The notes below the pieces were generated by a model. That model worked only from the letters and a program-made list of their open reading frames with translations, was not told the DNA's origin and did not search any database. From the NCBI RefSeq assembly GCF_000012805.1, contig NC_007484.1:1200001-1232000 (forward strand): a stretch of 32,000 nucleotides of DNA, written 5' to 3'. Below, piece by piece: positions 2 through 14,140 of this stretch (positions within the stretch are counted from its first letter, which is position 1; each line of letters starts with the position of its first letter). Origin of the DNA: Nitrosococcus oceani ATCC 19707 (GTDB taxonomy: Bacteria > Pseudomonadota > Gammaproteobacteria > Nitrosococcales > Nitrosococcaceae). A program made the position numbers and the translations under genes.

Positions 2-706
2 GAAACCGAGCAACCTGTCCCTGAGCCGATGACGGCTATCGACGCCACCAAGGTGCTCGGCTTGGACATGGGTCTCTCGCACCTGGCGATTGACTCCACT
101 GGACGAAAAGTAGCCAATCCACGCTTTATCAAGCAGGTTCAGAAAAATCTCAAGCGCAAGCAACAGTCGCTGTCACGAAAGCAAAAAGGCAGTTCCAAAC
201 GAGCAAAAGCACGCCTACTGGTCGCTAAGGCTCACGAGCGGGTCGCTGATGCCCGCAGTGACTTCCAGCATAAACTGTCCCGGCAGATCGTTGACGACAA
301 CCAAGCGGTGATCGTCGAGACGCTGAAAGTCAACAACATGATGAAGAACGCCAAGCTCGCCAAGCATATCGGCGATGCCTCTTGGCACGCCTTGATCGCC
401 AAGCTGGCATACAAGGCCAAGGAGCAGGGCAAACATCTGGTCAAGATCGACCCCTGGTTTGCCAGCTCAAAAACTTGCCATGTATGCCAGCACAAGATGG
501 ATGCCATGCCACTAAATATCCGGTCGTGGGCGTGCCCTACCTGCCACACGCGCCATGACCGCGACATCAACGCGGCGCTGAACATCCAACATCAAGGCAT
601 TTTGAAGTTGAAGGCGGAAGGGCTGTCCGTCTCTGCCCATCGAGGCTTGCGTAAATCCGGCATGCCGCCGGTGGCTGCCGTTGAAGTGGGAAGCTCCGTC
701 CGATAG
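2..706 (+). CDS. tnpB: IS200/IS605-family TnpB (OrfB) RNA-guided endonuclease. C-terminal ~235 codons only; the N-terminus lies beyond the left edge.
   Basis: The frame is open from base 2. Motifs present: RuvC-I LGLDMG, RuvC-II VIVETL, zinc finger CHVC...CPTC, RuvC-III HDRDINAALNI. Confidence 0.85.
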   Translation, partial: ETEQPVPEPMTAIDATKVLGLDMGLSHLAIDSTGRKVANPRFIKQVQKNLKRKQQSLSRKQKGSSKRAKARLLVAKAHERVADARSDFQHKLSRQIVDDNQAVIVETLKVNNMMKNAKLAKHIGDASWHALIAKLAYKAKEQGKHLVKIDPWFASSKTCHVCQHKMDAMPLNIRSWACPTCHTRHDRDINAALNIQHQGILKLKAEGLSVSAHRGLRKSGMPPVAAVEVGSSVR

Positions 707-1747: not shown

Positions 1748-1777
1748 GGGAGAAATAGGTTTATCGCTATTTCCCCC
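1748..1777 (+). terminator. Hairpin after the DUF2780 gene; possible terminator
   Basis: GGGAGAAATAG-8 nt loop-CTATTTCCCCC pairs 10 of 11 bp, followed by TTGCTTTG. It overlaps the premature end of the intI remnant. Confidence 0.4.
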
Positions 1778-2646
1778 TTGCTTTGCCGCGTTGCAGCAAA
1801 TGTGTGGCAAAACTGTGCCGAAAGGTATGTGCAGAAACTCGCTTGGTAATACCCGCTTGTCGAACCGCAGCCTTGATCGCCTTATTGATCAGCGATTGAT
1901 CTATAGGATGGCGTCGAGTCAAACCCGACAGAGGATCTACCGATAGCGAACGGGCCGGAAACACATATTGCCAGCCCCATTCCCGTTCGGCATGAGGATA
2001 TTTTTTTGCCAGCGCATACGGCAAATACACTGCACCGAAGCCGTCGGCCAAATCCTGCTCGTGAATCGCCTTGACCTTTTCTAAAATGATTTTGCAGTAA
2101 CGGTATCATGGCCGCAGAAAGCGGGGTTACCCTGTCTTTATCGCCCTTACCAGAGCGCACGGTAGTCTGTTTATAATCGTAATCGAGATCCTGCACCCGC
2201 AACCGAACGGCCTCGCTAATCCGTAAGCCGCTGCCGTATAACAGTTTCACCACTAACTGCGCCACGCCTTCAACCCGTGGCAATACTTGCCTGATCTCGT
2301 CCAACGACAACACTACTGGCACACGCCGACTGGTTTTGGAGCGAATGGCCTCGATACGCTTGGTCAGCGGTATATCCAGAACCTGCTTGTATAAAAACAC
2401 CAACGCATTCATCGCCTGATTTTGGGTGGCAGACGCTACTTTACGTTCTGTTGCCAGATAGCATAAAAACGCTTCTATCTTGACTTCACTGTTTTCAAAC
2501 AGCGCAGCTCTTTCGTTGAGCTGGTGAAATTTGACAAACTGCTTAATCCACTCGCAATAAGAGCGCTCGGTGTGCAGTGAATAATGCTTGAGCCGCATGA
2601 TGCGGCGAACATCTTCCAGCAAGGTTGGCGATTTGGTGCTTGACAT
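1767..2646 (-). pseudogene. intI: Integron integrase (IntI-type tyrosine recombinase), frameshifted and 3'-truncated
   Basis: N-terminal frame (ORF 1882..2670) reads ERSYCEWIKQFVKFH, ALVFLY, YGSGLRISEAVRLRVQDLD, VRSGKGDKDR. The C-terminal frame (1767..~2090) carries the IntI-specific insertion [23 protein letters not shown]...DP.SG..RRH and [12 protein letters not shown]. The frames join if one A is removed from the A-run at 2083-2086. The ORF stops right after HLLQRG, so the HxxGH/catalytic Tyr region is missing. Confidence 0.9.
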
Positions 2647-2667
2647 CAAATCATTAGTGGCTATAAA
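2640..2667 (+). promoter_or_regulatory. Pc-like sigma70 promoter reading into attI and the cassettes
   Basis: TTGACA (2640-2645), 16-nt spacer, TATAAA (2662-2667). The -35 overlaps the intI start codon (2644-2646 on the minus strand). Confidence 0.5.
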
Positions 2668-2702
2668 CAATTAATGGCTATAGTGAGGCGACCTATTATT
2701 AT

Positions 2703-2847
2703 ATAGGCAAATTTGCCTGAATTGATGGCTAATATCAGGTTATCAAGGCAAATGTACATGATTTGGGTATTATCAGGGCAAAAGTGCCTGAAAAAGCCGG
2801 CAATATCAATTTATCAGGCAGATTGGCTTGATAATCAATAGTTAGAC
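2703..2847 (+). other. attI region with iterated TATCAGG(G)CAAA-type motifs and crossover core GTTAGAC
   Basis: Motifs at ~2703-2720 (palindrome AGGCAAATTTGCCT), 2741-2761, 2771-2791 and 2811-2831. GTTAGAC at 2841-2847 fits GTTRRRY. TTAGAC matches 5/6 of the complement of the attC1 R'' core. Confidence 0.6.
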
Positions 2848-2900
2848 TTGCAAGAGAACATCGCGCATCGTGATGTCGTTTTAACAACAGGAGACATGCC

Positions 2901-3203
2901 ATGGTCAAAGTAGCCTTGTTCGTTCGCCTTGAAGCGAAACCCGGAAAAGAGAAAGAGGTTGAGAACTTCCTTGTGAGCGGCCTTCCCATCGTCAATGAGG
3001 AGCCTGACACCACTGCGTGGTTTGGCATTCGCCTTGGACCAAGCACTTTCGGAATCTTTGATGCTTTCCCGGATGAAGCGGGTCGGCAGGCCCATCTCTC
3101 CGGCAAGGTCGCAGCCGAGTTGATGGCTAAGGCAGGTGAGTTGTTCTCCGAGCCCCCGTCCATCGAAAAGGTTGATGTACTTGCGGCAAAGCTACCTGGC
3201 TAG
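2901..3203 (+). CDS. ABM-domain (YgiN-like) putative monooxygenase; cassette 1
   Basis: 100 aa. VALFVRLEAKPGKE..VE.FL, TTAWFGIRLGPSTFGIFDAFPDEAGRQAHLSG and IEKVDVLAAKLP are typical of this small family. RBS AGGAGA lies upstream. Confidence 0.75.
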   Translation: MVKVALFVRLEAKPGKEKEVENFLVSGLPIVNEEPDTTAWFGIRLGPSTFGIFDAFPDEAGRQAHLSGKVAAELMAKAGELFSEPPSIEKVDVLAAKLPG

Positions 3204-3206
3204 CAA

Positions 3207-3266
3207 GCCTAACAATTCGTTCAAGCCGACGCCGCTTCGCGGCGCGGCTTAACTCAGGCGTTCGCG
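3207..3266 (+). other. attC site of cassette 1 (60 bp)
   Basis: R'' GCCTAAC, imperfect palindrome, R' G|TTCGCG at 3260. By memory it is near-identical to the aadA-type 59-base element. Confidence 0.85.
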
Positions 3267-3418
3267 CCGCTGCGCGGCGCGAATCGGGGAGTTGACTGCG
3301 CCAAACGGCTGCCCGCGCCGCTACGCGTCGCGAACAACCGTTCGACTGGCAGAACCCCCTGCATAATCAGACGCTGTGCGCCTATGTATGCAGGAGAACC
3401 CGCCCGTCAACTCCCCGA
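3261..3418 (+). repeat. ORF-less attC-only unit, long form (copy A)
   Basis: Starts at G|TTCGCG and ends at CCCCGA|TTATGC. Internal R''-like cores are CGCGAAT (3278-3284) and CGCGAAC (3329-3335). A 15-bp perfect inverted repeat joins 3282-3296 and 3406-3420. Confidence 0.85.
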
Positions 3419-3579
3419 TTATGCGCCCACACGCCCTCTAGCCTAATGTCTTGTGCGACAGAAATATTTGGATTATTACATGATAGTTTTGGCGCTTATT
3501 CACGAAAAACAATAGGTGCAAAATGACACGACTATGGCAAGATCTAAGCAGAATATTTCGTGACACGGCAACGAAGAAG

Positions 3580-4188
3580 ATGTCTAACAATATTATTAGC
3601 ATAATCATTGCCATTGCCCGAGATGAAGTTTCCGAGGATACTCTAAAGAATATTGACGAAAATGTAAAAAGGCTCATTCAGAAACATTATAATGTAGGAT
3701 TGAGATACTTAGAGGAAATGCATTCGGTTAGTAATACAGAACTACGAAAGAAATTGCTTCACGATGCAAGGCGTTCATTTTCTGAAGCCATAACTGTCGA
3801 TACTCCACTTCAATCTGCACAAGCCACTAGAATAGTTGCTGTATGCTATGATTTATTGGACGAGAAAGAGACCGCCTTCCTTCGATACGAGGAAGCATTC
3901 TTAAAGGCTATTGAATATTATAATAGACTGTTGAAACAGTTTGAGAGTAGTGGGGGGACAAGAGGAATAGACTTGCTACTCGGTTTTTCTCTCGTTGGTC
4001 AGCCAATCATGTACACTCGATGGACCTTGAGATATTTTAGGCGCAAAAAGCTAGAAGAAGAGGCTAAAAATATTAGAAGCTTTCTATATGATTTGAAATA
4101 CTTTTTAGTTGAGAGAGAAATATTTCTTCAAGCTTTATATAGCGATATTGAAAGTATACCTCCCTATTCTTGGTCAGATACAGGATAG
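3580..4188 (+). CDS. Hypothetical protein, AT-rich, predicted all-helical; cassette 2
   Basis: Long ORF 3523..4188; ATG at 3580 (MSNNIIS) preferred. I recognise no family. Codon composition differs from its neighbours. Confidence 0.55.
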   Translation: MSNNIISIIIAIARDEVSEDTLKNIDENVKRLIQKHYNVGLRYLEEMHSVSNTELRKKLLHDARRSFSEAITVDTPLQSAQATRIVAVCYDLLDEKETAFLRYEEAFLKAIEYYNRLLKQFESSGGTRGIDLLLGFSLVGQPIMYTRWTLRYFRRKKLEEEAKNIRSFLYDLKYFLVEREIFLQALYSDIESIPPYSWSDTG

Positions 4189-4239
4189 AGAGTCGGGTAC
4201 ATGATTGGAAAGTTAAACTGAGCGAGATCCTTCCAGTGC

Positions 4240-4362
4240 GCATAACCCGCGGCTGCACGCCGACGCAGGGCTTCACCGCCTTGCCTCGTTCGGGCAGCAG
4301 CGCTTACTTGCCTCGTCCAATCGTTGCGCCGCCCTGCGCGGGTGAGCCGCAATCTGTTCGCG
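4240..4362 (+). other. attC site of cassette 2 (123 bp)
   Basis: R'' GCATAAC (4240-4246) is the complement of the cassette start TTATGC (3419-3424). Arms CCCGCGGCTGCACGCC / GCGCCGCCCTGCGCGGG. R' G|TTCGCG at 4356. Confidence 0.8.
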
Positions 4363-4513
4363 CCGCTGCGCGGCGCGAATCGGGGAGTTGACTGCGCCAA
4401 ACGGCTGCCCGCGCCGCTACGCGTCGCGAACAACCGTTCGACTGGCAGAACCTCCTGCATAATCAGATGCCGCACATCCATTATCCAGGAGAACCCGCCC
4501 ATCAACTCCCCGA
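4357..4513 (+). repeat. ORF-less attC-only unit, long form (copy B)
   Basis: Same unit as copy A. Ends at CCCCGA|TTAGCT. Confidence 0.85.
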
Positions 4514-4547
4514 TTAGCTGCCAGAGAAAGGTCGGAACCAATACGTA

Positions 4548-4576
4548 TTGACGATGTCCATACATCTAGATAGAGT
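4548..4576 (+). promoter_or_regulatory. Possible brnTA promoter with adjacent 10-bp palindrome
   Basis: TTGACG, 17-nt spacer, TAGAGT, ending 6 nt before ATG 4583. Palindrome AATACGTATT at 4540-4549. Confidence 0.3.
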
Positions 4577-4582
4577 GCTTCT

Positions 4583-4876
4583 ATGGACATGACCTTTGAG
4601 CTCAATGGAACCACTTTTGTATGGGACAGTAAGAAAGCCCATTCAAATTTTGCCAAGCATGAGGTCTCGTTTGAAGCAGCAGCTACGGCGTTCTTCGATC
4701 CCTTTTTCCGGTTGGAAGACGCCAGCGACAATGATGAAGTACGAGATGCCTTAATCGGGTTTGATGGGTATCATCGGCTACTTTATGTCGTGAACATTCA
4801 AATCGAAGAGAGCGGCATTCGTATTATTTCAGCCCGAAAGGCCACTCGCGAGGAGCGGCAAAGATATGATCAATGA
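4583..4876 (+). CDS. brnT: BrnT-family (DUF497) toxin
   Basis: F.WD..KA..N..KH.VSFEEA..AF.D and IRIISARKAT..ER..Y motifs. Confidence 0.85.
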   Translation: MDMTFELNGTTFVWDSKKAHSNFAKHEVSFEAAATAFFDPFFRLEDASDNDEVRDALIGFDGYHRLLYVVNIQIEESGIRIISARKATREERQRYDQ

Positions 4877-5165
4877 ACGGATTAAAAAGCGCCTGAAAAA
4901 GGACCGCCCTATGACTTCCATTACCCTTCGTGTACCGAAGGATGTGGTTGAAGGGCTCAAGGAAATGGCTCCGGAGCTAGGGTTCGCCGGCTACCAGCCG
5001 CTTATCCGAGCCTATATCAGTGAAGGGATGCGCCGAGACGAGAAAAAGCTCTATTTCACACCAGCAAAACGTATGGCTGAAGCTCTAAAAGCTCGCGGTG
5101 TTGATCCAGCGCTTGTCGATCAGGTACTTATTGAAGCTAGTGATTCTCAGCAGGCGGTCGATTAA
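4866..5165 (+). CDS. brnA: BrnA-type (RHH/CopG-like) antitoxin
   Basis: Overlaps the brnT stop by 11 nt. Contains ITLRVPKDVVEGLKEMAPELGFAGYQPLIRAYISEG. Confidence 0.8.
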   Translation: MINERIKKRLKKDRPMTSITLRVPKDVVEGLKEMAPELGFAGYQPLIRAYISEGMRRDEKKLYFTPAKRMAEALKARGVDPALVDQVLIEASDSQQAVD

Positions 5166-5234
5166 GGAAAGTGGTGCACGCAGTGACAGGAATATGGCTC
5201 AACGCATCGTTTCTGTTAGGTTAACCGCGGTGGC

Positions 5235-5290
5235 AGCTAACAAATCGCTGTAGGCGGCGGGTCAAACGCACCTGAACTCAGGCGTTCGCG
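5235..5290 (+). other. attC site of the brnTA cassette (56 bp)
   Basis: R'' AGCTAAC is the complement of cassette start TTAGCT (4514-4519). The 3' end CTCAGGCG|TTCGCG is shared with attC1. Confidence 0.75.
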
Positions 5291-5391
5291 CCGCTACGCG
5301 TCGCGAACAACCGTTCGACTGGCAGAACCTCCTGCATAATCAGATGCCCCACATCTATTATCCAGGAGAACCCGCCCGTCAACTCCCCGAG
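5285..5391 (+). repeat. ORF-less attC-only unit, short form (copy C)
   Basis: Lacks the first ~51-bp module. Own R'' CGCGAAC at 5302-5308. Ends at CCCCGAG|TTAGGG, a canonical G|TT. Confidence 0.85.
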
Positions 5392-5400
5392 TTAGGGCTG

Positions 5401-5670
5401 TCAAAACTGATCGTAGTGACCTCCGATGGCGAAAATATAGATGTATTTATCATCGAACTTATATACGATGCGGTCTTTTCGACTAAGGCGCCGGGACCAA
5501 AGGCCGGAAAGGCTATGTTTCAACTGTTCAGGTTTTCCCATTCCTGTAGTGGGGTCACCGCGCAGCATTTCTTTTAATACGCTACGCAGCGCTTTATGTA
5601 GTTTTTTGTCGCGTTCACGAAGGTTCTCGTATGTGGTCCAGGTATTGCCTTCAAAAACCAGTGATCTCAT
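5401..5670 (-). CDS. yoeB: YoeB/Txe-family toxin
   Basis: GKPE.LKH.LSG.WSRR....DRIVY and a C-terminal GHY motif. Sits downstream of, and overlapping, yefM. Confidence 0.9.
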   Translation of the reverse strand: MRSLVFEGNTWTTYENLRERDKKLHKALRSVLKEMLRGDPTTGMGKPEQLKHSLSGLWSRRLSRKDRIVYKFDDKYIYIFAIGGHYDQF

Positions 5671-5923
5671 CCATTTCCTCGGCTGAAGGCCTGTATCCTG
5701 TTCCCTTCTCGTGGGTACGCAATGAATCCGCTATTTGCCGGATTAAGTCATTGCTCTGCAATACAAATAGTGTTTCTTGCTCACGTTCCCAATCCTCGGC
5801 GCTCAACACCACGAAATCGTCACCACCGCGGCGTGTGACCTTCAGCGGCGCATGCCTGCTAACCACTTGTTCTACCAGAGTTTTTAAATTATCTCTAAAC
5901 TTATTTACACTTACGCTATCCAT
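5651..5923 (-). CDS. yefM: Phd/YefM-family antitoxin
   Basis: N-terminal VSVNKFRDNLKTLVEQV..HAPLKVTRRGGDDFVVLSAEDWE..QETL. Overlaps yoeB by 20 nt. Confidence 0.9.
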   Translation of the reverse strand: MDSVSVNKFRDNLKTLVEQVVSRHAPLKVTRRGGDDFVVLSAEDWEREQETLFVLQSNDLIRQIADSLRTHEKGTGYRPSAEEMDEITGF

Positions 5924-5939
5924 TGGTCGATGTTCTCAG

Positions 5940-5960
5940 TTGTACGATGATCCCGTACAA
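5940..5960 (-). promoter_or_regulatory. Probable yefM-yoeB operator palindrome
   Basis: TTGTACG-7 nt-CGTACAA lies 17 nt upstream of the yefM ATG. As I recall, TGTAC-type palindromes are the known YefM-YoeB operator core in E. coli. Confidence 0.5.
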
Positions 5961-5973
5961 TATAGACAAAAAG

Positions 5974-6049
5974 CCCTAACAAGGCAAATCAACTCGGACG
6001 GGTTTCGTCGCTGCGCTCCTCAACCTGCCGGTTATTTGCAACGTTATTC
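5974..6049 (+). other. attC site of the yefM-yoeB cassette (76 bp)
   Basis: R'' CCCTAAC is the complement of cassette start TTAGGG (5392-5397). Arms GGCAAATCAAC / GGTTATTTGC. R' G|TTATTC at 6043. Confidence 0.8.
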
Positions 6050-6082
6050 ATCACAGACAAAACCTTAGATTTGGAATCCGCG

Positions 6083-7070
6083 ATGTTCGACTTACCGCCA
6101 CTCCTCCACAAGCGTGATGTCTTCGTCATCATGCCGTTCTCGACTACCAAGTCGTGCTCGGAGAATGAGTGGACTGAAATCTACGAAGACGTGTTCCAGC
6201 CTGCGATAGAAAATTGCGGTCTCCAGTGCGGTCGCGCCGAAGTTGGAACGGGAAGTCTAATCAAAAGTATCATTGAACGACTGCGTAACGCATACATCGT
6301 TTTGGCGGACATTACAGACGCGAATCCAAACGTTTTCTACGAACTTGGCGTTACGGCATTCTCTCAGCAAAAGAACTATCCTGCTGGCACAAGGAGCAAA
6401 GCACATCCCGTCGGATATTCGGGGCTATTGGTTGCTCATCTATGGAATTTCCCCGAAAAAAATCGCAACGTTCAAATCTGAATTGAGACGAATAACCGAA
6501 CAGATTGATAGCGACCCAGAAAAGAGCGACAGCCCTGTTTCCGACTACATGGAACGTGAAAACGTCGTGCTTTCACGGGATGCGCAGAGACAAAACCTTC
6601 GCAAACTGGGAGCCCTCTTCACCGAATTGACCGGAAATGCTCTCGTGGTATCAGAATTGTCCAGCAATTCCGATGCGCTCCCGTTGGTCTCCTACGGCTG
6701 TCTGGCGCTCCTGCTAGAAACGCTATACGTCGATCCCGGTCCAGAGGTTTTGAAGCGAGCATACGAACTCAGGAAATGTTTGCAGTTGATCAAACGTGGA
6801 AACTTCGGCGCGATACTGCCGGTCACAACCAAGACGTTGCAACAATTGATACTTGATGTCGAGGCTATCCGAAACAAGGTCGCGGCCGGACCGTTGGATG
6901 AACCGCCGAATCCCACGATGATGCAATGGATTCCTGGTTTCGGATTGCCAAGCGACATTCCGCTGCCTGGATCATATCTGGGCGGGGATGATGTTTACGG
7001 CTTGTGTATACAGGCAGCTGCGCCCTTGTCGGAGGATTCGAGCCCTGGAAACCAAAACAAAGATGAATAA
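6083..7070 (+). pseudogene. Two-domain protein: N-terminal nucleoside 2-deoxyribosyltransferase-like/TIR-like Rossmann domain plus an unknown C-terminal domain. Interrupted by a +1 frameshift near 6350-6356.
   Basis: Frame 1 reads DVFVIMPFS...IVLADITDANPNVFYELGV. The continuation HSLSKRTILLAQGAKHIPSDIRGYWLLIYG is in the frame of ORF 6273..7070. Removing one G around 6353 joins them. Confidence 0.6.
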
Positions 7071-7156
7071 CCATGCCGTGTGAACCGGAGCGGCCGACAA
7101 TGCGGATATTGAAATCAGAGTTTGTGGCGGCCGCCCGGTTACGACCATCGTTCGCG
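7065..7156 (+). other. attC site (92 bp)
   Basis: R'' GAATAAC (containing the stop codon) is the complement of cassette start TTATTC (6044-6049). Arms GTGTGAACCGGAGCGGCCG / CGGCCGCCCGGTTACGAC. R' G|TTCGCG at 7150. Confidence 0.8.
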
Positions 7157-7311
7157 CCGCTGCGCGGCGCGAATCGGGGAGCTGACTACGCCAAACGGCT
7201 GCCCGCGCCGCTACGCGTCGCGAACAACCATTCGACTGACGGAACCTCCTGCATCATCAGACGCCGTGCGCCTATGTATGCAGGAGAGCCCGCCGCCCGT
7301 CAACTCCCCGA
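7151..7311 (+). repeat. ORF-less attC-only unit, long form (copy D)
   Basis: Same unit. Ends at CCCCGA|TTAGGC. Confidence 0.85.
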
Positions 7312-7323
7312 TTAGGCAAAAGT

Positions 7324-8133
7324 ATGGCTGAGAAGCAGTATCAAACCATTGAGGTGTACCGAGCTGCCGCAGATGCACTCTATGCGGCCAGTGAAATGGT
7401 GCTTTTCTCATTCGCCAAACACGACTATGACACTAAGAACCTAATTATCAGGAACTTCGTTGCCCGCTCAGCCATGACGCTTAAAAGCGTTTTTTCGCTT
7501 TGGGATAACGGCGACACTCAGAATGCCTGGATTATACATAGAGCCTTGGTCGATAGAATGTTTCATTTGCACAGCCTCGGAGTGAATGACGAGTTTCACG
7601 CCTTCGAGGAGTGGTCTTTTTTCGAGCAATACAAAAGCCAAAACCGACTAAAAAGCGATGCTCTTTTCAAGGATCAGGCTGTAGGCTGGGTATATAAAGT
7701 AAGTGATGAGAAAAAGGCACGGATTAAAGCTCTGGAACAAAATAAGCCAACGTGGCGGCGCCCGAGGGCGGAGGATGTCGCTAAAGATATGGGAATGGAA
7801 TTTCTTTATAAATACGGCTATGACTATGCCTCGACCCACGTCCACCCTATGGCCAATGATGGTGAGCAAGACTTTTACACTATTACAAAGCTTCAGCCAT
7901 CGCCTAGGTTTCCCTCTCAGATCACGGTAATCTCAAACACTATTTTGACCTCTACACTTATTCTTCAGGATTCATTGAATCACAGCTCTTTTAGTTGGAG
8001 GCGAGTGTTATGGGACTTCATAGATGATGTCCGAGAGCTACTGGATAACGGTGATACCAGCTATCAGAAATCTTTCGAAAAGCTGGCCATTTTATTCAAA
8101 GAATACGATTTATGTGAGCCCAGCAATGCCTAA
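7324..8133 (+). CDS. Hypothetical helical protein, possibly DUF5677-like (weak recollection)
   Basis: 269-aa ORF starting 6 nt after the cassette's first hexamer (TTAGGC, 7312-7317). The stop codon lies inside R'' of its attC. Confidence 0.6.
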   Translation: MAEKQYQTIEVYRAAADALYAASEMVLFSFAKHDYDTKNLIIRNFVARSAMTLKSVFSLWDNGDTQNAWIIHRALVDRMFHLHSLGVNDEFHAFEEWSFFEQYKSQNRLKSDALFKDQAVGWVYKVSDEKKARIKALEQNKPTWRRPRAEDVAKDMGMEFLYKYGYDYASTHVHPMANDGEQDFYTITKLQPSPRFPSQITVISNTILTSTLILQDSLNHSSFSWRRVLWDFIDDVRELLDNGDTSYQKSFEKLAILFKEYDLCEPSNA

Positions 8134-8205
8134 CAAGACGCCGTTGGCGGACAATTTTTCCACCGCTTCGCGGCTCAAAAATTGCCGCAAAGCTCTGCGT
8201 TAGGT
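8128..8205 (+). other. attC site (78 bp)
   Basis: R'' GCCTAAC is the complement of TTAGGC (7312-7317). Arms GACAATTTTTC / CAAAAATTGCC. R' G|TTAGGT at 8199. Confidence 0.85.
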
Positions 8206-8229
8206 TTACTTATTTAAAGGGGAAGTGAT

Positions 8230-8565
8230 GTGAAAAAATCCGCCAGTTGTTTAATTGCTCTATTGGTATTTTCTTGTTGTGTTTACGCAGAGTTACAAGA
8301 AGAGAAATGGAAGACTATATTTTTAAAATATCTCCCGGAAGATAGCTCAAAGGAATCGGTTGAAATGAGAGAATATTTTAAAAAAGCCCCAGTTGAAGGT
8401 ATTTACCCTTTTGGAGCAGGTATCTGTGAAGCACTGAAAGAAGGACAGCATAAAAAGGATATTTTAGAAAAAAGTTATTACCATTTTTGGGGGGTTCCTG
8501 CGTCTGATGCTATGTACAAAGCGTCTATAGAGGTAATTTGCCCAGAATATAAAGCGCGTCGTTAG
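8230..8565 (+). CDS. Small secreted protein of unknown function
   Basis: GTG start after AAGGGGAAG. Signal peptide MKKSASCLIALLVFSCCVYA. AT-rich. Confidence 0.55.
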   Translation: MKKSASCLIALLVFSCCVYAELQEEKWKTIFLKYLPEDSSKESVEMREYFKKAPVEGIYPFGAGICEALKEGQHKKDILEKSYYHFWGVPASDAMYKASIEVICPEYKARR

Positions 8566-8588
8566 GTTTCCAATAGGAACCTTGAGCT

Positions 8589-8870
8589 GTGAGATTTGAA
8601 TGGGATTTGAGTAAGGCAGAGAATAATGAAAAGAAACATGGGGTAAGCTTCTCAGAAGCCACGACTGTGTTTGGGGATCCTTTGGAACTTACCATATCTG
8701 ATCCTGACCACTCAGAGGACGAGTACCGTTTTCTTCTTAGTATTGGCAGATCGTCGGTGGGCCGTGTTCTCATTGTCTCCTATACTGAAAGGGAAGAGAA
8801 TAGTATCCGAATCATCAGCGCAAGACGTGCTACGAAGCCAGAGCAGAAGCAATATGAGTCACAACACTGA
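8589..8870 (+). CDS. brnT: BrnT-family (DUF497) toxin, second copy
   Basis: GTG start. FEWDLSKAENNEKKHGVSFSEATTVFGDP and IRIISARRATKPEQKQY. Confidence 0.85.
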   Translation: MRFEWDLSKAENNEKKHGVSFSEATTVFGDPLELTISDPDHSEDEYRFLLSIGRSSVGRVLIVSYTEREENSIRIISARRATKPEQKQYESQH

Positions 8871-9090
8871 ATCAGATGATATGCGCCCTGAGTATGATTT
8901 CTCGGGCGGTGTTCGGGGGAAGCACTATAAGGCGTATCGAAAAGGTACGAACGTTGTCCTGCTTGATCCAGACGTTGCTGAAGTCTTCAAAAATTCCGAG
9001 TCTGTTAATCGAGCACTTCGTTTACTTATGGACTTGGGAGGCAAGGAAATTCAAAGAAACCTAACAAAGGGCTCCAGCGGACACTCGTAA
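8854..9090 (+). CDS. Putative antitoxin partnered with BrnT
   Basis: ATG at 8854 overlaps the brnT end. MRPEYDFSGGVRGKHY...VVLLDPDVAEVF.NSESVNRALR is a motif commonly seen downstream of DUF497 toxins. Confidence 0.65.
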   Translation: MSHNTESDDMRPEYDFSGGVRGKHYKAYRKGTNVVLLDPDVAEVFKNSESVNRALRLLMDLGGKEIQRNLTKGSSGHS

Positions 9091-9092
9091 AC
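9059..9092 (+). other. Truncated attC (5' half only)
   Basis: R'' ACCTAAC is the complement of cassette start TTAGGT (8200-8205). The L'' region GGGCTCCAGCGGACAC has no complementary 3' arm. It abuts an internal piece of the repeat unit. Confidence 0.55.
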
Positions 9093-9248
9093 CCGCGCCG
9101 CTATCTCCCATAGTATACGCTTCTTTTAAGCGTATACTACGCAGCAAACCTACTAACTCTGAAGAAGGAATAAACTTTCATTTGCCTAAGTCGGGGGTGC
9201 CGCTCAACTGGCAGAACCTCCTGCATCATCAGATGCCCCACATCTATA
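9093..9248 (+). repeat. Disrupted remnant of the ORF-less unit (copy E)
   Basis: CCCGCGCCGCTA (9093-9104) and CAACTGGCAGAACCTCCTGCATCATCAGATGCCCCACATCTATA (9205-9248) match the unit. About 100 unrelated bp lie between them, including the perfect hairpin AGTATACGCTT-CTTT-AAGCGTATACT. Confidence 0.6.
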
Positions 9249-9280
9249 GTGGTTAAGCAGCGTAAGATCAGCGTGTTGGC

Positions 9281-9340
9281 GTCTAATATTTCGCTGCAGC
9301 TGCGTTTGCCCTGCCAAGCACCTGAGCTCAGGCGTTATGC
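9281..9340 (+). other. attC site (60 bp) preceding the higBA cassette
   Basis: R'' GTCTAAT, L'' GCTGCAGC, 3' end CTCAGGCG|TTATGC. Same architecture and length as attC1. Confidence 0.65.
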
Positions 9341-9365
9341 AGTAAATACCAAGCTCTATTGATAA

Positions 9366-9379
9366 GCGTCACGTGACGC
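9366..9379 (+). promoter_or_regulatory. Perfect 14-bp palindrome; candidate higBA operator
   Basis: GCGTCACGTGACGC lies 16 nt upstream of the higB ATG. Confidence 0.4.
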
Positions 9380-9394
9380 GGTACAGTTTGGCTT

Positions 9395-9682
9395 ATGATT
9401 AAATCCTTCGCCGATAAGCGAACTCAAGGGCTGTACTCCATGGGCAAGTCAAAGAAGTTTCCTGCGGATGTAGCTCCGAGAGCCGCCAGAAAACTAGAAT
9501 ACGTGAATCTGGCAGAGCAGATAGAGGACTTGAAGGTGCCGCCCGGCAATCGCCTTCACCCACTTTCTGGAAATAGGCAGGGGCAGCACGCAATTTCAAT
9601 ACATAAACAGTGGCGTATCTGTTTTCGTTTTGAGGATGGCGATGCGTATGAGGTCGAAGTGTGTGACTACCACACTGAGTGA
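9395..9682 (+). CDS. higB: HigB-type (plasmid maintenance system killer, RelE/ParE superfamily) toxin
   Basis: MIKSFADKRTQGLY...LE.L......DL..PPGNRLH.LSG.R.GQHAISI..QWRICFRFEDGDAYEVEV.DYH. Confidence 0.85.
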   Translation: MIKSFADKRTQGLYSMGKSKKFPADVAPRAARKLEYVNLAEQIEDLKVPPGNRLHPLSGNRQGQHAISIHKQWRICFRFEDGDAYEVEVCDYHTE

Positions 9683-9686
9683 GGTA

Positions 9687-10011
9687 ATGACTATGGCCAT
9701 TCTTAATAATACCGGTATGCAGCGTAAGCCGACTCATCCTGGTGAAATGCTGAGAGAGGATTTCCTGCCTGACTATGGCCTGACCGTTGCAGGGCTAGCT
9801 GAATCTCTGGGTGTCTCTCGACAGTCAGTTAATGAATTATTGCGTGAGCGCCGTGCCGTCAGTCCTGAAATGGCACTTCGGCTCGCCTGTTCGTTTGTTT
9901 GGTAACTCTCCGGAATTCTGGCTGAATTCTCAGCGATCTGTTGATCTTTGGAGGGCGGCTCAGTCGGTCAAGGAAGAAGTGGCTCGGATTAAGCCGCTAC
10001 ATGTTGCATAA
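9687..10011 (+). pseudogene. higA: HigA (XRE-HTH) antitoxin with a 1-nt frameshift near 9888-9892
   Basis: Frame 1 reads PTHPGEMLREDFL...LGVSRQSVNELLRERRAVSPEMALRLA, then stops. The expected continuation RLFGNSPEFWLNSQ..VDLW is in the frame of ORF 9811..10011. Confidence 0.75.
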
Positions 10012-10083
10012 CCAGGCCATGCACCGGTGGCAAAACCGGCGCGAAGCGGAGATTTTGCCACCGGTGCATGGCAGACGTTATCC
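10006..10083 (+). other. attC site of the higBA cassette (78 bp)
   Basis: R'' GCATAAC is the complement of cassette start TTATGC (9335-9340). 20-bp arms GGCCATGCACCGGTGGCAAAA / TTTTGCCACCGGTGCATGGC. R' G|TTATCC at 10077. Confidence 0.9.
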
Positions 10084-10207
10084 ACAAAAATAGGACGATC
10101 TACCTTGCCAGTTGAAAAAACAGGGCCAGACCCCAATTGATTCAAGCTTTCTATGGACCATGCTAAATGCGCTGGTGAGCCGGCGCGAGTGAGTCGGACG
10201 GCGGGGC

Positions 10208-10489
10208 TCAGTCACCGTCTTCAGTTTCCTGAGCCAGTAGATACTTGAGCGTAAAGGCATCGTAGTCGAAATCGGTGTCGTCCGAGACCGCGGCCAGAAC
10301 CTGGGGCGCTATGCGCTCCCGCTCCTCCTCGGTCTCGAAGTCTGAGAAGTTGGCTGCGGCCGCCTCGGCAAACATTTCTTCTATCAGCCGCTTTGCCCGC
10401 GCTTCGTGGCTCTCGATATCAGTATTGGCGCCGGGAGGGATGTTTTCCTCAATCCAGGTCTCAGCCCACCTCAGGAATCGCTTGCTCAT
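10208..10489 (-). CDS. DUF768-like small acidic protein
   Basis: MSKRFLRWAETWIEENIPPG...AKRLIEEMFAEAAAANFS resembles DUF768 proteins. The ORF is open up to 10684, but that extension is AT-rich and unlike the family. Confidence 0.55.
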   Translation of the reverse strand: MSKRFLRWAETWIEENIPPGANTDIESHEARAKRLIEEMFAEAAAANFSDFETEEERERIAPQVLAAVSDDTDFDYDAFTLKYLLAQETEDGD

Positions 10490-10741
10490 GACTGCCCATC
10501 TACCTCTTGCATCATATTCGGGGCCGGTTTCCCGGACCACTGTGATCCACCCGATATTTCGGTCTAAATAAAAAAATTTTACTACATACTGATTGAATGC
10601 TTCAATAGTCGCTCGATATAGAAAGGGGTTTTTCTGGTTTACTTTCGAATCGTAAAGATCACATGACATGTGTTTGTGGTTCAATAACTTTAGTCGCTAC
10701 GCTTCCCTGCGACTATCGTCCTAAAAAACAATCTTGGCTCT

Positions 10742-10858
10742 GTGTATCGAAACATGGGCCGCATCGCCGAAGCCGAGCCGCTGCTTCGCAAGGCCGTTGA
10801 GCTAAACGAGCGCGTATTGGGTGGTAGTCACCCACAAACATTGAGCACGACTGTTAAC
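10742..10858 (+). pseudogene. Isolated TPR-repeat fragment
   Basis: The translation ..MGRIAEAEPLLRKAVELNERVLGGSHPQTLSTTVN matches the TPR_10/12 pattern. No start codon or surrounding ORF. Confidence 0.4.
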
Positions 10859-11030
10859 CCAGTCTATGGGGAGTGCTTCTTTACTTGTTTTCAGCAAGGC
10901 TTGTAGCGAACGCTCTGCACCAAGTCCGTGGGCAAGAATGACGGCATCAGCGGCGCAATCGCTCTTCGCGCCTTCATATCTAAGTGCGTATTTTCAATTA
11001 TTACGCCTGGTGTCAATTGATACGTTAGAA

Positions 11031-11103
11031 ACATAACAGGTAGATGTAGCCGGCCAATTTTCCGCTACGCCCCTTCGGGCTCGGCTGATTTACGGCGTTA
11101 GGC
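11031..11103 (+). other. attC site (73 bp)
   Basis: R'' ACATAAC, arms GCCGGCCAATTTTCCGC / GGCTCGGCTGATTTACGGC, R' G|TTAGGC at 11097. Confidence 0.7.
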
Positions 11104-11145
11104 GGCTGCAAGCTAGGGGGTAGATTTTCGAGGTATATTTTGCGA

Positions 11146-11400
11146 ATGACCAACGAATTTACAGCTATTTTCGAGTGTGATGGCGACTGGTATATCGCGT
11201 ATTGCCCTGAAATACCGGGTGCAAATGCCCAGGGTCGTACAAAGGACGAGGCTCGAGAGAGCCTTGCCGAGGCGATTTCTCTTATTCTTGCGGACCGCCG
11301 AGAGGATATGCTTCGTGGACTACCTGACGATAGAATCGGCTCGCGGAGAAGATATGCCAGGGCCTCTCTATCCCGAAAATCGGCGGGTAATTCCCCTTAA
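11146..11400 (+). CDS. HicB-like (UPF0150) antitoxin with no adjacent hicA; atypical C-terminal tail
   Basis: FTAIFECDGDWYIAYCPEIPGANAQGRTKDEARESLAEAISLILADRRED is the family signature. The last ~25 aa look out of character. Confidence 0.65.
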   Translation: MTNEFTAIFECDGDWYIAYCPEIPGANAQGRTKDEARESLAEAISLILADRREDMLRGLPDDRIGSRRRYARASLSRKSAGNSP

Positions 11401-11453
11401 TAAGGCGCTCGAACGGACGCGGTTAACAGTGAGCTGCTTTCCTTGGTGATCTA

Positions 11454-11559
11454 TCCGCGCCGCAGCGCGTGGCGAACAACCGTTCGATTGGCAGAACCTC
11501 CTGCATCATCAGATGCCGTACGTCTATTACCTAGGAGAATTCGCTAGTCAACATTCCGA
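11454..11559 (+). repeat. ORF-less attC-only unit, short form, diverged (copy F)
   Basis: TCCGCGCCGCAGCGCGTGGCGAACAACCGTTCGATTGGCAGAACC...GTCAACATTCCGA|TTATAA. The left core is mutated (A|TCCGCG). Confidence 0.7.
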
Positions 11560-11577
11560 TTATAAGCATTAACTGAT

Positions 11578-11600
11578 ATAGTACCATTGTATGGTACTAT
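11578..11600 (+). promoter_or_regulatory. Palindrome upstream of hicA; candidate operator/promoter
   Basis: ATAGTACCAT-TGT-ATGGTACTAT (10-bp arms) lies 7 nt before ATG 11607. TATAGT at 11577-11582. Confidence 0.4.
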
Positions 11601-11606
11601 TTTCGC

Positions 11607-11861
11607 ATGAAACGGAAGCACTAACGAACGTTGGAAAGGATATTTGCTCGCCCTACTAGTGGAACTATTCCCTGGTCCGATATTGAGTCACTTTTTGTGT
11701 CACTCGGCGCTGATGTGTCCGAGCGGGCAGGATCCCGAGTAGCAGTGGTTTTATTTGGCGAAGTCAAAGTTTTTCATCGTCCTCATCCTTCACCAGACAC
11801 GGATAAAGGCGCAGTTAATAGCATACGAGAATGGCTAGATTTACACGAGGTGAAACCATGA
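11607..11861 (+). pseudogene. hicA: HicA-family toxin with an in-frame TAA at codon 6
   Basis: ATG AAA CGG AAG CAC TAA CGA ACG TTG GAA... gives MKRKH*RTLERIFARP, against the family N-terminus M..K.RKTLE.IF. The rest is intact (GSRV...FHRPHP). A TTG at 11631 could allow reinitiation. Confidence 0.65.
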
Positions 11862-12190
11862 ATGTTTTAGAAGTTGACGGCTTTAAAGCAAAAATTGAGT
11901 TCGACCCTGATCTTGATCTTTTTCGGGGCGAGATACTTGGATTGAATGGCAGTGCTGATTTCTATGGGAAAAGCCCGGCAAGTTTACGAAAAGAGTTTAA
12001 AAACTCGCTAAAAGTATTTCTGGAAGTTTGTGAGGAAAAAGGTATAGAGCCCACAAAAGAATTTTCAGGTAAGTTTAACTTAAGAATTCCACCCAGATTA
12101 CACAGTGAAATTTCGGCTAAGGCGGCCGCATCGAACAAGAGTATCAATCAATGGGTGGTCGAGGTTTTGGAAGAGTCTGTAAATGAATGA
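11858..12190 (+). CDS. hicB: HicB-family antitoxin
   Basis: ATGA overlap with hicA. FKAKIEFDPDLDLFRGEILGL...SGKFNLRIPPRLHSEISAKAAASNKSINQWVVEVLE. Confidence 0.85.
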   Translation: MNVLEVDGFKAKIEFDPDLDLFRGEILGLNGSADFYGKSPASLRKEFKNSLKVFLEVCEEKGIEPTKEFSGKFNLRIPPRLHSEISAKAAASNKSINQWVVEVLEESVNE

Positions 12191-12196
12191 AAATGC

Positions 12197-12271
12197 TTAT
12201 AACAAGGGTATGCAGCCGGATCAAAATGTTCGCTGCGCTATCCTTTTGACCGTTGGTGCCGGGCGTTCACG
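12197..12271 (+). other. attC site of the hicAB cassette (75 bp)
   Basis: R'' TTATAAC is the complement of cassette start TTATAA (11560-11565). Arms GGATCAAAA / CCTTTTGACC. R' G|TTCACG at 12265. Confidence 0.8.
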
Positions 12272-12316
12272 CCCCTGCGCGGCGCGAATCGGAGAATTGA
12301 CTGTGTCAAACGTGGC
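12266..12316 (+). repeat. 5' fragment of the ORF-less unit (copy G); last recognisable array element
   Basis: TTCACGCCCCTGCGCGGCGCGAATCGGAGAATTGACTGTGTCAAACGTGGC matches the first ~50 nt of the long form, then homology stops. Confidence 0.65.
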
Positions 12317-12375
12317 CCCAGGGTTTTCTTTCTGATACAAGTAAGGTGTGTAAAATCAAGGAAAATTTAGGGTAG

Positions 12376-13934: not shown

Positions 13935-14140
13935 GAGTAAAATTACCTATAAAATAAACATTTATCCCTTTATATTCTATGGGAGATGAATATTTGTTGG
14001 ACTAATTTGCGCTTCGTACCTCCTATATTAAAGAATTGTATTCGGAGAATTCACGTTTGTGAATGCCGGTGGGAGCTTGCTGCTCCAAAGTATAATTTTA
14101 CCCGATAAAGTTGTCCCTGGCCCAGGGATGAGGGGATTTG

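Follow-up and report, generated by a model that had tools for sequence, protein, structure and literature searches.

The window analyzed here (the whole stretch of 32,000 nucleotides, positions 1,200,001–1,232,000 of contig NC_007484.1 of Nitrosococcus oceani ATCC 19707) holds the chromosomal integron of this bacterium, in which the integrase gene intI is followed downstream by a cassette array in one orientation. The array occupies about 2843–12320 on the plus strand, after an attI site at about 2700–2845; it carries many toxin-antitoxin pairs and gives way to ordinary genes and a nuo operon. The intI gene (1767–2670, minus strand) is a frameshifted and C-terminally truncated pseudogene in this strain: its two overlapping frames match positions 1–179 and 189–277 of the 315 positions of the TIGR02249 integron integrase profile, and the C-terminal part is missing. 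Another N. oceani assembly (GCA_000740735.1; contig L015, 1061–2047) encodes an intact IntI (P0002) of 328 amino acids that is 98% identical to the pseudogene. Dispersed among the cassettes of the window is a repeated unit that has two alternative left arms for one right arm and an unusual crossover base, and this unit is the subject of our analysis. About 10 ordinary attC recombination sites with the crossover G/TT (a slash marks the crossover point) and all of the units share one orientation downstream of intI.

The unit is an independent gene-less cassette that contains an attC and nothing else, 107 bp long in its short form and about 158 bp in its long form. Seven copies (A–G) lie on the plus strand of the window. 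Unit A (3261–3418) is a long form, essentially an elaborated attC, that ends at A/TT. Units B (4357–4513) and D (7151–7311) are also long and end at A/TT, each with one mismatch in the outer stem described below (ATCAAC in B, GCTGAC in D). Unit C (5285–5391) is short, does not have the first left arm (module 1) and ends in CCCCGAG/TT, with one extra base. The remaining copies are partial. Copy E (9200–9247) is a fragment with only the L''2 box of the second left arm (module 2) and half of the terminal hairpin; copy F (11455–11559) is truncated at the 5' end, with no left G/TT and no module 1, and has A/TT at its right end; and copy G (12266–12319), directly after the last attC (G/TT between 12265 and 12266) at the distal end of the array, is module 1 only. 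The comparison also covered a second N. oceani contig (L014; JPFN01000005.1, assembly GCA_000740735.1), which carries two long copies (H and I), a short copy (J) and a fragment of module 1. It further included two contigs of identical sequence with a long unit (L001 and L003) and one with a diverged copy (L006); L001/L003 and L006 are unrelated contigs.

The boundaries of the unit coincide with integron crossover points. On the left, units A, B, C, D, G and I and the L001 copy begin directly after the G/TT of an ordinary attC, and the ordinary attCs that precede the units in the window span 3207–3260, 4240–4356, 5231–5284, 7066–7150 and 12197–12265. The first of these, the attC of cassette 1, was delimited by sequence reading and a constrained fold (3207–3266, plus strand; R'' box GCCTAAC) and has its G/TT crossover between 3260 and 3261. 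The unit itself opens with TTCGCG, the complement of its own CGCGAA(T/C) boxes, as is expected of the remnant of a cassette's own core. On the right, the cassette that follows the unit opens with a TTxxxx sequence that is the exact reverse complement (7–11 nucleotides, ending in AAC) of the opening R'' box of the next attC. This match is present at nine junctions (A, B, C, D, F, H, I, L001 and L006). For example, the cassette after unit A starts with TTATGCGC and the matching R'' at 4238 is GCGCATAAC. The corresponding pairs are TTAGCTGCCA and TGGCAGCTAAC (5231) after unit B, TTAGGGCT and AGCCCTAAC (5972) after unit C, TTAGGCA and TGCCTAAC (8127) after unit D, TTATAAGCAT and ATGCTTATAAC (12193) after copy F, and TTCTGCT and AGCAGAAC after the L001 unit. 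The neighbours are thus self-contained cassettes of the G type, which argues that the unit is an independent cassette and that A/TT is a genuine crossover junction. Indeed, at least eight different cassettes adjoin the A crossover base, and A/TT has really served as a crossover, joined to ordinary G-type cassettes at least eight times.

The unit has the two bounding crossover points of a gene-less cassette and no conserved open reading frame (ORF): all six frames contain stops or differ between copies. Protein searches with the translations of the unit returned nothing except the second N. oceani copy, and an Rfam search, in a database without an attC family, gave no family at threshold. A promoter scan did not detect a sigma-70-like site inside any unit, although promoters of gene-less cassettes are reportedly unpredictable in silico. 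Nor did we find a promoter or terminator within the units, or a T-tract after their stems. The attC parts account for the whole unit and leave about 11 nucleotides of cargo. We also considered and rejected a repetitive extragenic palindromic (REP) element or miniature inverted-repeat transposable element (MITE), because the unit has no target-site duplication, its ends are integron crossover points and all copies lie within cassette arrays. The terminal inverted repeats of such elements are also missing, as the left repeat of the unit is subterminal and is preceded by a conserved head of 21 nucleotides.

By contrast, most features of an attC are present. The unit has the array position and orientation of an attC next to an integron integrase, and the cassette junctions place the crossover immediately 5' of TT. 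Module 2 and the right arm (and only this pair) also join L'' to L' while leaving the central spacer unpaired and one base of the bottom strand extrahelical. The departure lies in the canonical core, GTTRRRY and RYYYAAC: the triplet is ATT in 10 of 11 copies, and the R'' box is CGCGAAC or CGCGAAT rather than RYYYAAC. Sequence comparison therefore suggests a variant rather than an ordinary member of the attC class, one without the canonical triplet that nonetheless appears to behave as a crossover site.

The base before TT is A at 3418, 4513, 7311 and 11559 and G at 5391, where unit C has its extra base. Across the copy set, the core triplet opens with A in 10 of 11 copies; copy C alone has G. 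An earlier note on this DNA had regarded the T of CGCGAAT in module 1 as the compensating partner of the A in A/TT, and the tabulation of all copies agrees with this in one direction. CGCGAAT occurs together with A/TT in each of the six copies whose module 1 and right arm are both intact (A, B, D, H, I and L001), and thus in every intact long copy. The reverse does not hold, for A persists in J, F and L006, none of which has an intact module 1. Copy F is, however, uninformative as a short counter-example with A: it is truncated at the 5' end, has no left G/TT and is not the native attC of the upstream cassette. The distribution among the copies indicates that A is the ancestral crossover base of the unit family and that G arose once, as a secondary 1-nucleotide insertion in copy C. 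The insertion recreates the canonical G/TT opposite AAC, a change that is compensatory in the sense of the earlier note (n = 1).

The long form has an elaborate set of complementary segments, here described on the plus strand of unit A. A 10-bp perfect inverted repeat, TTCGCGCCGC-TGC-GCGGCGCGAA, forms a 5' hairpin (3261–3283; 3261–3270 with 3274–3283). Module 1 (3278–3296) follows with R''1 CGCGAAT, spacer CGGGGA and L''1 GTTGAC, and is the exact reverse complement of the right arm plus TTCGCG. An inter-module segment, GCCAAACGGCTGCCCGCG (3300–3317), separates it from module 2 (3329–3346), which has the form of a canonical attC left arm: R''2 CGCGAAC, spacer AACC and L''2 GTT[C]GAC. The terminal hairpin (3358–3394; CCTGCATA...TATGCAGG) is the counterpart of the variable terminal structure of attCs, and the right arm (3406–3420) consists of L' GTCAAC, spacer TCCCCG and R' A/TT, with the crossover between 3418 and 3419. 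The two modules belong to repeats at 3261–3298 (TTCGCGCCGCTGCGCGGCGCGAATCGGGGAGTTGACTG) and 3312–3348 (CCCGCGCCGCTACGCGTCGCGAACAACCGTTCGACTG), which are offset by 51 bp and identical at 26 of 38 positions by manual count (68%). This repeat is too diverged for Tandem Repeats Finder, which detected no tandem duplication. Sequence reading reproduced the coordinates, the 51-bp offset and the A and G crossover bases of the earlier note, and its proposal of two left arms for one right arm is supported.

The two left arms pair with the right arm in different ways. The repeat search found 15 nucleotides of 100% complementarity in situ between module 1 (3282–3296) and the right arm (3406–3420). If the unit is circularised, CGCGAAT-CGGGGA-GTTGAC pairs with GTCAAC-TCCCCG-A/TTCGCG over 19 bp, and in N. 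oceani the complementarity reaches 23 bp around the TGC loop. The fully paired module 1 stem has neither an unpaired spacer nor an extrahelical base. In contrast, module 2 pairs with the right arm imperfectly, as seen in the fold of the short copy C, where the spacer stays unpaired and a single base bulges out, a C if the top strand is read and a G if the bottom strand is. On the bottom strand of copy C, GTTGAC pairs with GTC-G-AAC. Thus, the perfect complement of 15 and 19 bp in module 1 and the canonical-like arm with a bulge and unpaired spacer in module 2, both described in the earlier note, are borne out, and the former gains strength from the double changes in L001 described below.

A further relationship, absent from the earlier note, involves the segment between the modules. 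This "anti-module 2" is a near reverse complement of the module 2 arm. In unit A (3300–3317), 13 of 18 positions pair on the top strand and the five mismatches become G.T wobbles on the bottom strand. Manual counts against the reverse complement of each copy's own module 2 arm gave 13/18 for N. oceani A (GCCAAACGGCTGCCCGCG), 16/19 for L001 (GTCGAACGATTGGTCCACG) and 15/18 for L006 (GTCTAATGTTTGGTTCGCG). The head would therefore mask both canonical arms in the modeled structures and not the right arm alone. The long form is predicted to fold into a three-way junction, in which module 1 and the right arm build an outer stem, the inter-module segment and module 2 build an inner hairpin, and the terminal hairpin is the third branch. 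The resemblance of the second half of the head to the reverse complement of module 2, from which this predicted junction follows, is the new element of the present analysis.

Folding energies favor this structure. The three-way junction is the minimum-energy structure on both strands in 5/5 intact long copies and is about 20–25 kcal/mol better than the canonical attC fold of module 2 with the right arm. Against shuffled sequences, as the earlier note had proposed to check, the folds proved far more stable than expected: the bottom strand of unit A (-60.3 kcal/mol) has z = -9.3, its top strand z = -6.2 and the short copy C z = -5.8. The bottom strand of the long copies is 8–12 kcal/mol more stable than the top. 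The bottom strand of 263 known attCs is on average about 2 kcal/mol more stable, a difference attributed to bottom-strand G.T pairs (PMC5027507), so that the bias of the unit has the direction seen in attCs generally but is much larger. The inner hairpin is present in N. oceani, L001 and L006 with sequences that differ between them, and in each lineage one strand or both are more stable than shuffles (A, bottom strand, -19.8 kcal/mol, z = -3.8; L001, -25.1 kcal/mol, z = -6.7; L006, top strand, -11.8 kcal/mol, z = -3.5). Wobble pairing of the inner hairpin specific to the bottom strand was rejected as a general rule, as it is true of N. oceani and L001 and reversed in L006.

Covariation between copies provides additional evidence for the stems. 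The spacer pair is GCGCGA/TCGCGC in L001 and CGGGGA/TCCCCG in N. oceani, a difference of three double compensatory changes that leaves the 19-bp complementarity perfect. Across the copies, 91.7% of the cells of the outer stem are paired and three pairs are changed on both sides, all of them from L001. The L001 changes are the best evidence that the pairing of module 1 with the right arm has been maintained, and they suggest this for one independent lineage. The inner hairpin also covaries: L'' of L006 (GTTAGAC) faces GTCTAAT, and copy I has a CG-to-TA double change.

Integron integrases recombine the folded bottom strand of their attCs. We propose, with moderate confidence, that the unit is an attC-only gene-less cassette whose core is a canonical attC and whose 51-bp head is an anti-attC that controls the recombinogenic fold. 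The core consists of module 2, the terminal hairpin and the right arm; it has the AAC box and leaves the spacer unpaired, and a single G bulges from its bottom strand. In the single-stranded long unit, module 1 would capture the right arm, including the crossover base (AAT with ATT), and the next segment would capture module 2, so that each canonical arm would be held by a better partner. We infer that the head restrains or times the formation of the fold between module 2 and the right arm. Because the head lies 3' of the right arm, terminal hairpin and module 2 on the bottom strand, these three would be exposed first if that strand were unwound from its 5' end. Exchange with ordinary G/TT sites would then proceed through the module 2 fold, in which an incoming C would meet G and only the outgoing T would make a T.G wobble. 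More speculatively, and in an extension that we consider unlikely, a head dedicated to the anti-attC role could combine with the A base to provide the unit with two modes of recombination. If it were true, the closed mode, with the AAT:ATT fold of module 1, would exchange efficiently only with A-type units and would provide a private orthogonal channel for moving blocks of "cassette + unit". The open mode, with the module 2 fold (AAC, T.G wobble), would exchange with ordinary G/TT sites. The unit would then be a portable, switchable recombination site and a second layer of control over array rearrangement.

Several observations weigh against the proposed anti-attC role of the head. The shuffle control for covariation was not significant (97/500 shuffles reach the observed number of doubly changed pairs), and every compensatory change in the outer stem comes from one lineage. 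The comparison includes three independent lineages only, which were found with a pattern derived from the unit, and L006 keeps an outer stem of about 8 bp and an inner hairpin that favors the top strand. The energies are those of naked single-stranded DNA and ignore single-stranded DNA-binding protein, integrase and folding kinetics, so that the balance of folds may differ in the cell. Furthermore, the long form has spread to at least six junctions even though the canonical fold is strongly disfavored in it. The spread of the long form fits equally well with a paired stem that is itself the substrate, and deletion of the extrahelical bases does not abolish recombination in some attCs, which recombine well without them. 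The stem of module 1 and the right arm could therefore be what the cognate integrase recognizes, with a matched A:T at the cleavage position, strand choice based on the more stable bottom strand, and module 2 and the hairpin as a branched terminal structure; we see this as possible, if clearly short of probable. Every intact long copy keeps AAT and ATT complementary at the cleavage position, and recombination requires complementarity within the folded site (PMC2811028). With 7 + 6 + 6 bp, the stem also matches the usual R-spacer-L spacing, and the bottom strand, 8–12 kcal/mol more stable than the top, would set the strand choice. However, all observed junctions are with G-type cassettes, which a paired-stem substrate leaves unexplained: an incoming C from G/TT would meet A, and for IntI1 this configuration has been measured at about 3 x 10^-3 of the wild-type level. 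Efficient recombination of VCR2 with a paired spacer required a mutant of IntI1. Module 2 also keeps every canonical attC feature in all copies, including those without module 1.

The other explanations assign the head no role in recombination or place the function of the unit elsewhere. The unit could be a selfish empty cassette without function whose head is a neutral by-product: the left arm would have been duplicated in tandem and the duplicate then homogenised with the right arm, for instance through template switching or through repair inside palindromes. Modules 1 and 2 indeed share 68% identity at a distance of 51 bp, and copies C and J are evidence of recombination between the leaders, which are direct repeats. 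Moreover, an attC-only cassette can spread without benefit to the host, and the array is decaying in the window strain (dead intI; fragments E, F and G). A neutral origin is nonetheless doubtful in the face of the 19/19 complementarity kept in two lineages that differ at three spacer pairs; in three lineages, the second half of the head also follows the sequence of module 2. Among the copies that have both a module 1 and a right arm, stems are perfect in 2/2 of the assembly with the intact IntI versus a stem-breaking mutation in 2/3 of the strain with the dead intI, although these numbers are small. Alternatively, the gene-less cassette could act on a neighbouring cassette as a promoter, a transcriptional insulator or terminator, or a small RNA. 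Most of the gene-less cassettes of Vibrio superintegrons that have been tested have promoter activity, from promoters not recognisable in silico (bioRxiv 10.1101/2023.11.21.568050), and four of the five cassettes directly after a unit (A, B, C, D and F) have a same-strand ORF 13–105 nucleotides downstream. The cassette after unit C is, however, encoded on the opposite strand, and the negative scans for sigma-70-like sites, T-tracts and Rfam families, together with the approximately 11 nucleotides left for cargo, make a regulatory role quite improbable. The earlier note had raised the possibility that A/TT blocks excision and makes the unit a permanent 5' leader of the downstream cassette. This would agree with the roughly 300-fold reduction of ATT x GTT recombination by IntI1, but is very hard to reconcile with eight different downstream cassettes that each have a TTxxxx start matching their own R''. 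The upstream neighbours of the units vary too, and the cassettes beside the units differ between two N. oceani strains. Its alternative suggestion, that the cognate integrase tolerates A/TT, fits the eight different downstream cassettes that abut A.

Published work on IntI1 places the A/TT crossover in context. GTT has been stated to be absolutely conserved in all characterised integrons, and the identity of the first base of the triplet in both partner sites is the one strict sequence requirement of IntI1 (Frumerie et al., 2010; PMC2811028). The enzyme cleaves ATT sites and recombines ATT x ATT as actively as the wild type, whereas ATT x GTT falls to about 3 x 10^-3 when both the attC core (R') and the inverse core (R'') are changed, since docking requires the exchanged first base to meet its complement (PMC2811028). 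Like the engineered ATT mutants of attC-aadA7 and attI1 in that study, the unit combines an ATT triplet with a complementary AAT on the other arm. Unlike them, the unit family is natural, also keeps an AAC arm and has all its junctions with G-type cassettes. A perfect hairpin is expected to favor the reverse reaction (PMC5027507), and alternative attC conformations are known to alter recombination frequency (PMC6393395). The straight and kinked attC hairpins of the latter study (Mukhortava et al., 2019) resemble the unit in that competing folds decide whether both integrase-binding boxes are presented. However, that switch consists of three spacer bases in a simple hairpin, whereas the unit has a 51-nucleotide segment with alternative partners for both arms.

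The unit also has similarities to and differences from the recombination sites and cassettes of other integrons. It shares with canonical attCs (59-base elements such as attC-aadA7 and VCR) the position and orientation in an array downstream of intI and attI, an inverse core ending in AAC, a core ending in TT, a terminal hairpin and a crossover 5' of TT. The L boxes (GTT[C]GAC and GTCAAC) with a bulged G on the bottom strand, the unpaired spacer and the bottom-strand G.T pairs are likewise common to both. It differs in the A of the core in 10 of 11 copies, in being attached to no gene and, in the long form, in the perfect second left arm and the anti-left-arm segment, with a predicted three-way junction. 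The species-specific repeated attCs of sedentary chromosomal integrons (VCR, XCR and PAR) are likewise highly similar repeats of about 110–160 bp along one array. Those repeats are, however, the attC of each gene cassette, whereas the N. oceani unit stands alone between cassettes with heterogeneous attCs. Gene-less cassettes as such are already known, from Vibrio (bioRxiv 10.1101/2023.11.21.568050) and an oral metagenome (PMC6557892). Like the unit, they have two crossovers and no coding sequence and recur in chromosomal arrays, but they have been studied for promoter activity in non-coding cargo. By comparison, the unit (107 or 158 bp) is essentially all attC, has no detected promoter-like site and occurs 5–7 times in one array, features that appear to set it apart as a pure, multi-copy attC.

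The unit family is a natural exception to the GTT/AAC triplet and carries both AAT and AAC partner arms. ATT sites have so far been laboratory constructs. The family offers a natural test bed for the identity of the cleavage site and for structural control over attC activity, with the sequence of an intact cognate integrase at hand. It raises the questions of how strict the identity of the first base is outside IntI1, whether a T.G wobble can replace a match in docking and whether competing arms can tune mobility. Furthermore, the multiplication of "empty", attC-only cassettes in an array bears on cassette-level selfishness and array stabilisation.

The relationship between the two forms of the unit is probably the reverse, in this array, of the one given in the earlier note, which described the long form as the short form plus a duplication. 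In a tree of the 105 nucleotides shared by the copies, the short copy C is sister to the long copy B, inside the clade of long copies. The leader of the short copy J is chimeric, with a 5' end of the module 1 type and a 3' end of the module 2 type. The nesting of C among long copies and the chimeric leader of J suggest that the short forms are independent deletions between leader repeats. The L001 module 1 leader is identical to the N. oceani module 2 leader. We also considered an inverted mini-cassette followed by a direct one as the origin of the long form. The arms fit such an arrangement, but the module 1 leader is direct, and a simple inverted insertion was rejected.

Array contents differ between closely related N. 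oceani strains, and units are present in both. The assembly with the intact IntI has a different first cassette (DJ-1/PfpI) but likewise shows a long-unit head after the attC of this cassette, which suggests recent activity. L014, the second N. oceani contig of this assembly, was located with a protein query, a spurious ORF that spans unit B, and its cluster of units probably continues the array of the intact-IntI strain. Its cassettes encode GFA, SEFIR/TIR, BrnT/BrnA, SIMPL and multicopper oxidase proteins, and a second remnant consisting of module 1 only, besides copy G, lies at 3019–3045 of this contig after the Cu-oxidase cassette. The genes of the window are also present on contig BJWX01000003.1 of N. 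oceani NS58. A published comparison of N. oceani strains makes no mention of an integron, and no description of the N. oceani array was found in the literature searched.

The arm motif has 12 matches in the window against 2.3 expected, a number reached in 0/100 shuffles. The copies outside the window were recovered with a pattern from the unit's own core and carry an ascertainment bias; the strong conservation of the 24-nucleotide core was accordingly rejected as an artefact of searching with that core. A scan of genome contigs with the core found only L001, and the N. oceani source genome was not among the matches. L001 is labelled a Verrucomicrobiota metagenome-assembled genome, a label that rests on a binned contig of 2.4 kb, and its long unit has G/TT on the left and A/TT on the right. 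The metagenome scan returned L003 (identical to L001), L006 and four chance matches in coding sequence. Three contigs have the 24-nucleotide core inside the protein motif WQNLLHNQ (L002, 3587–3611; L004, 586–609; L005, 531–554), which we take to be chance. The diverged L006 copy keeps A/TT and the right arm, and module 1 only partly. A tandem repeat of about 57 nucleotides (GTTCAGCCCCGCAAGGCGGGACTTCACATC...) is found at the end of this contig (7790–7914). Scans of viral and plasmid sequences gave no copies of the unit, and the contigs of seven IntI relatives (77–98% identity) contained no unit outside N. oceani itself.

Several additional features of the window were recorded. Toxin-antitoxin cassettes dominate the array (4583–5165, 5401–5923, 8589–9090, 9395–9905 and 11631–12190) and include BrnT/BrnA twice, YoeB/YefM on the opposite strand, a HigB-like toxin with a helix-turn-helix protein, and HicA/HicB. 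The attC of cassette 1 is 94–97% identical to the attC of more than 5000 clinical enterobacterial plasmids, presumably of the aadA type. An ordinary attC at about 9283–9340, of the same family as that at 5231–5290, has an R'' box GTCTAAT (AAT rather than AAC) although its GTT core is normal; no more than one such case was noted, and it may reflect decay. A leader-like sequence, CCCGCGCCGCTA, lies at 9092, about 95 nucleotides upstream of copy E (region 9086–9256), as if an insertion or rearrangement had hit the unit. The GC skew of the plus strand is positive throughout the window (1–32000; 0.035 and 0.046), which would make the attC bottom strands the leading-strand template, the orientation reported for sedentary chromosomal integrons. 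A TnpB fragment (OrfB_IS605/Cas12f-like TNB; 29–706, plus strand) lies just beyond intI, and a full IS200/IS605 pair (TnpB and Y1 transposase) occupies the corresponding place in the other strain (L015, 3313–4873). Finally, a look-alike of module 1, ATTCGGAGAATTCAC-GTTT-GTGAAT, is located at 14041–14066, 1.7 kb past the array.

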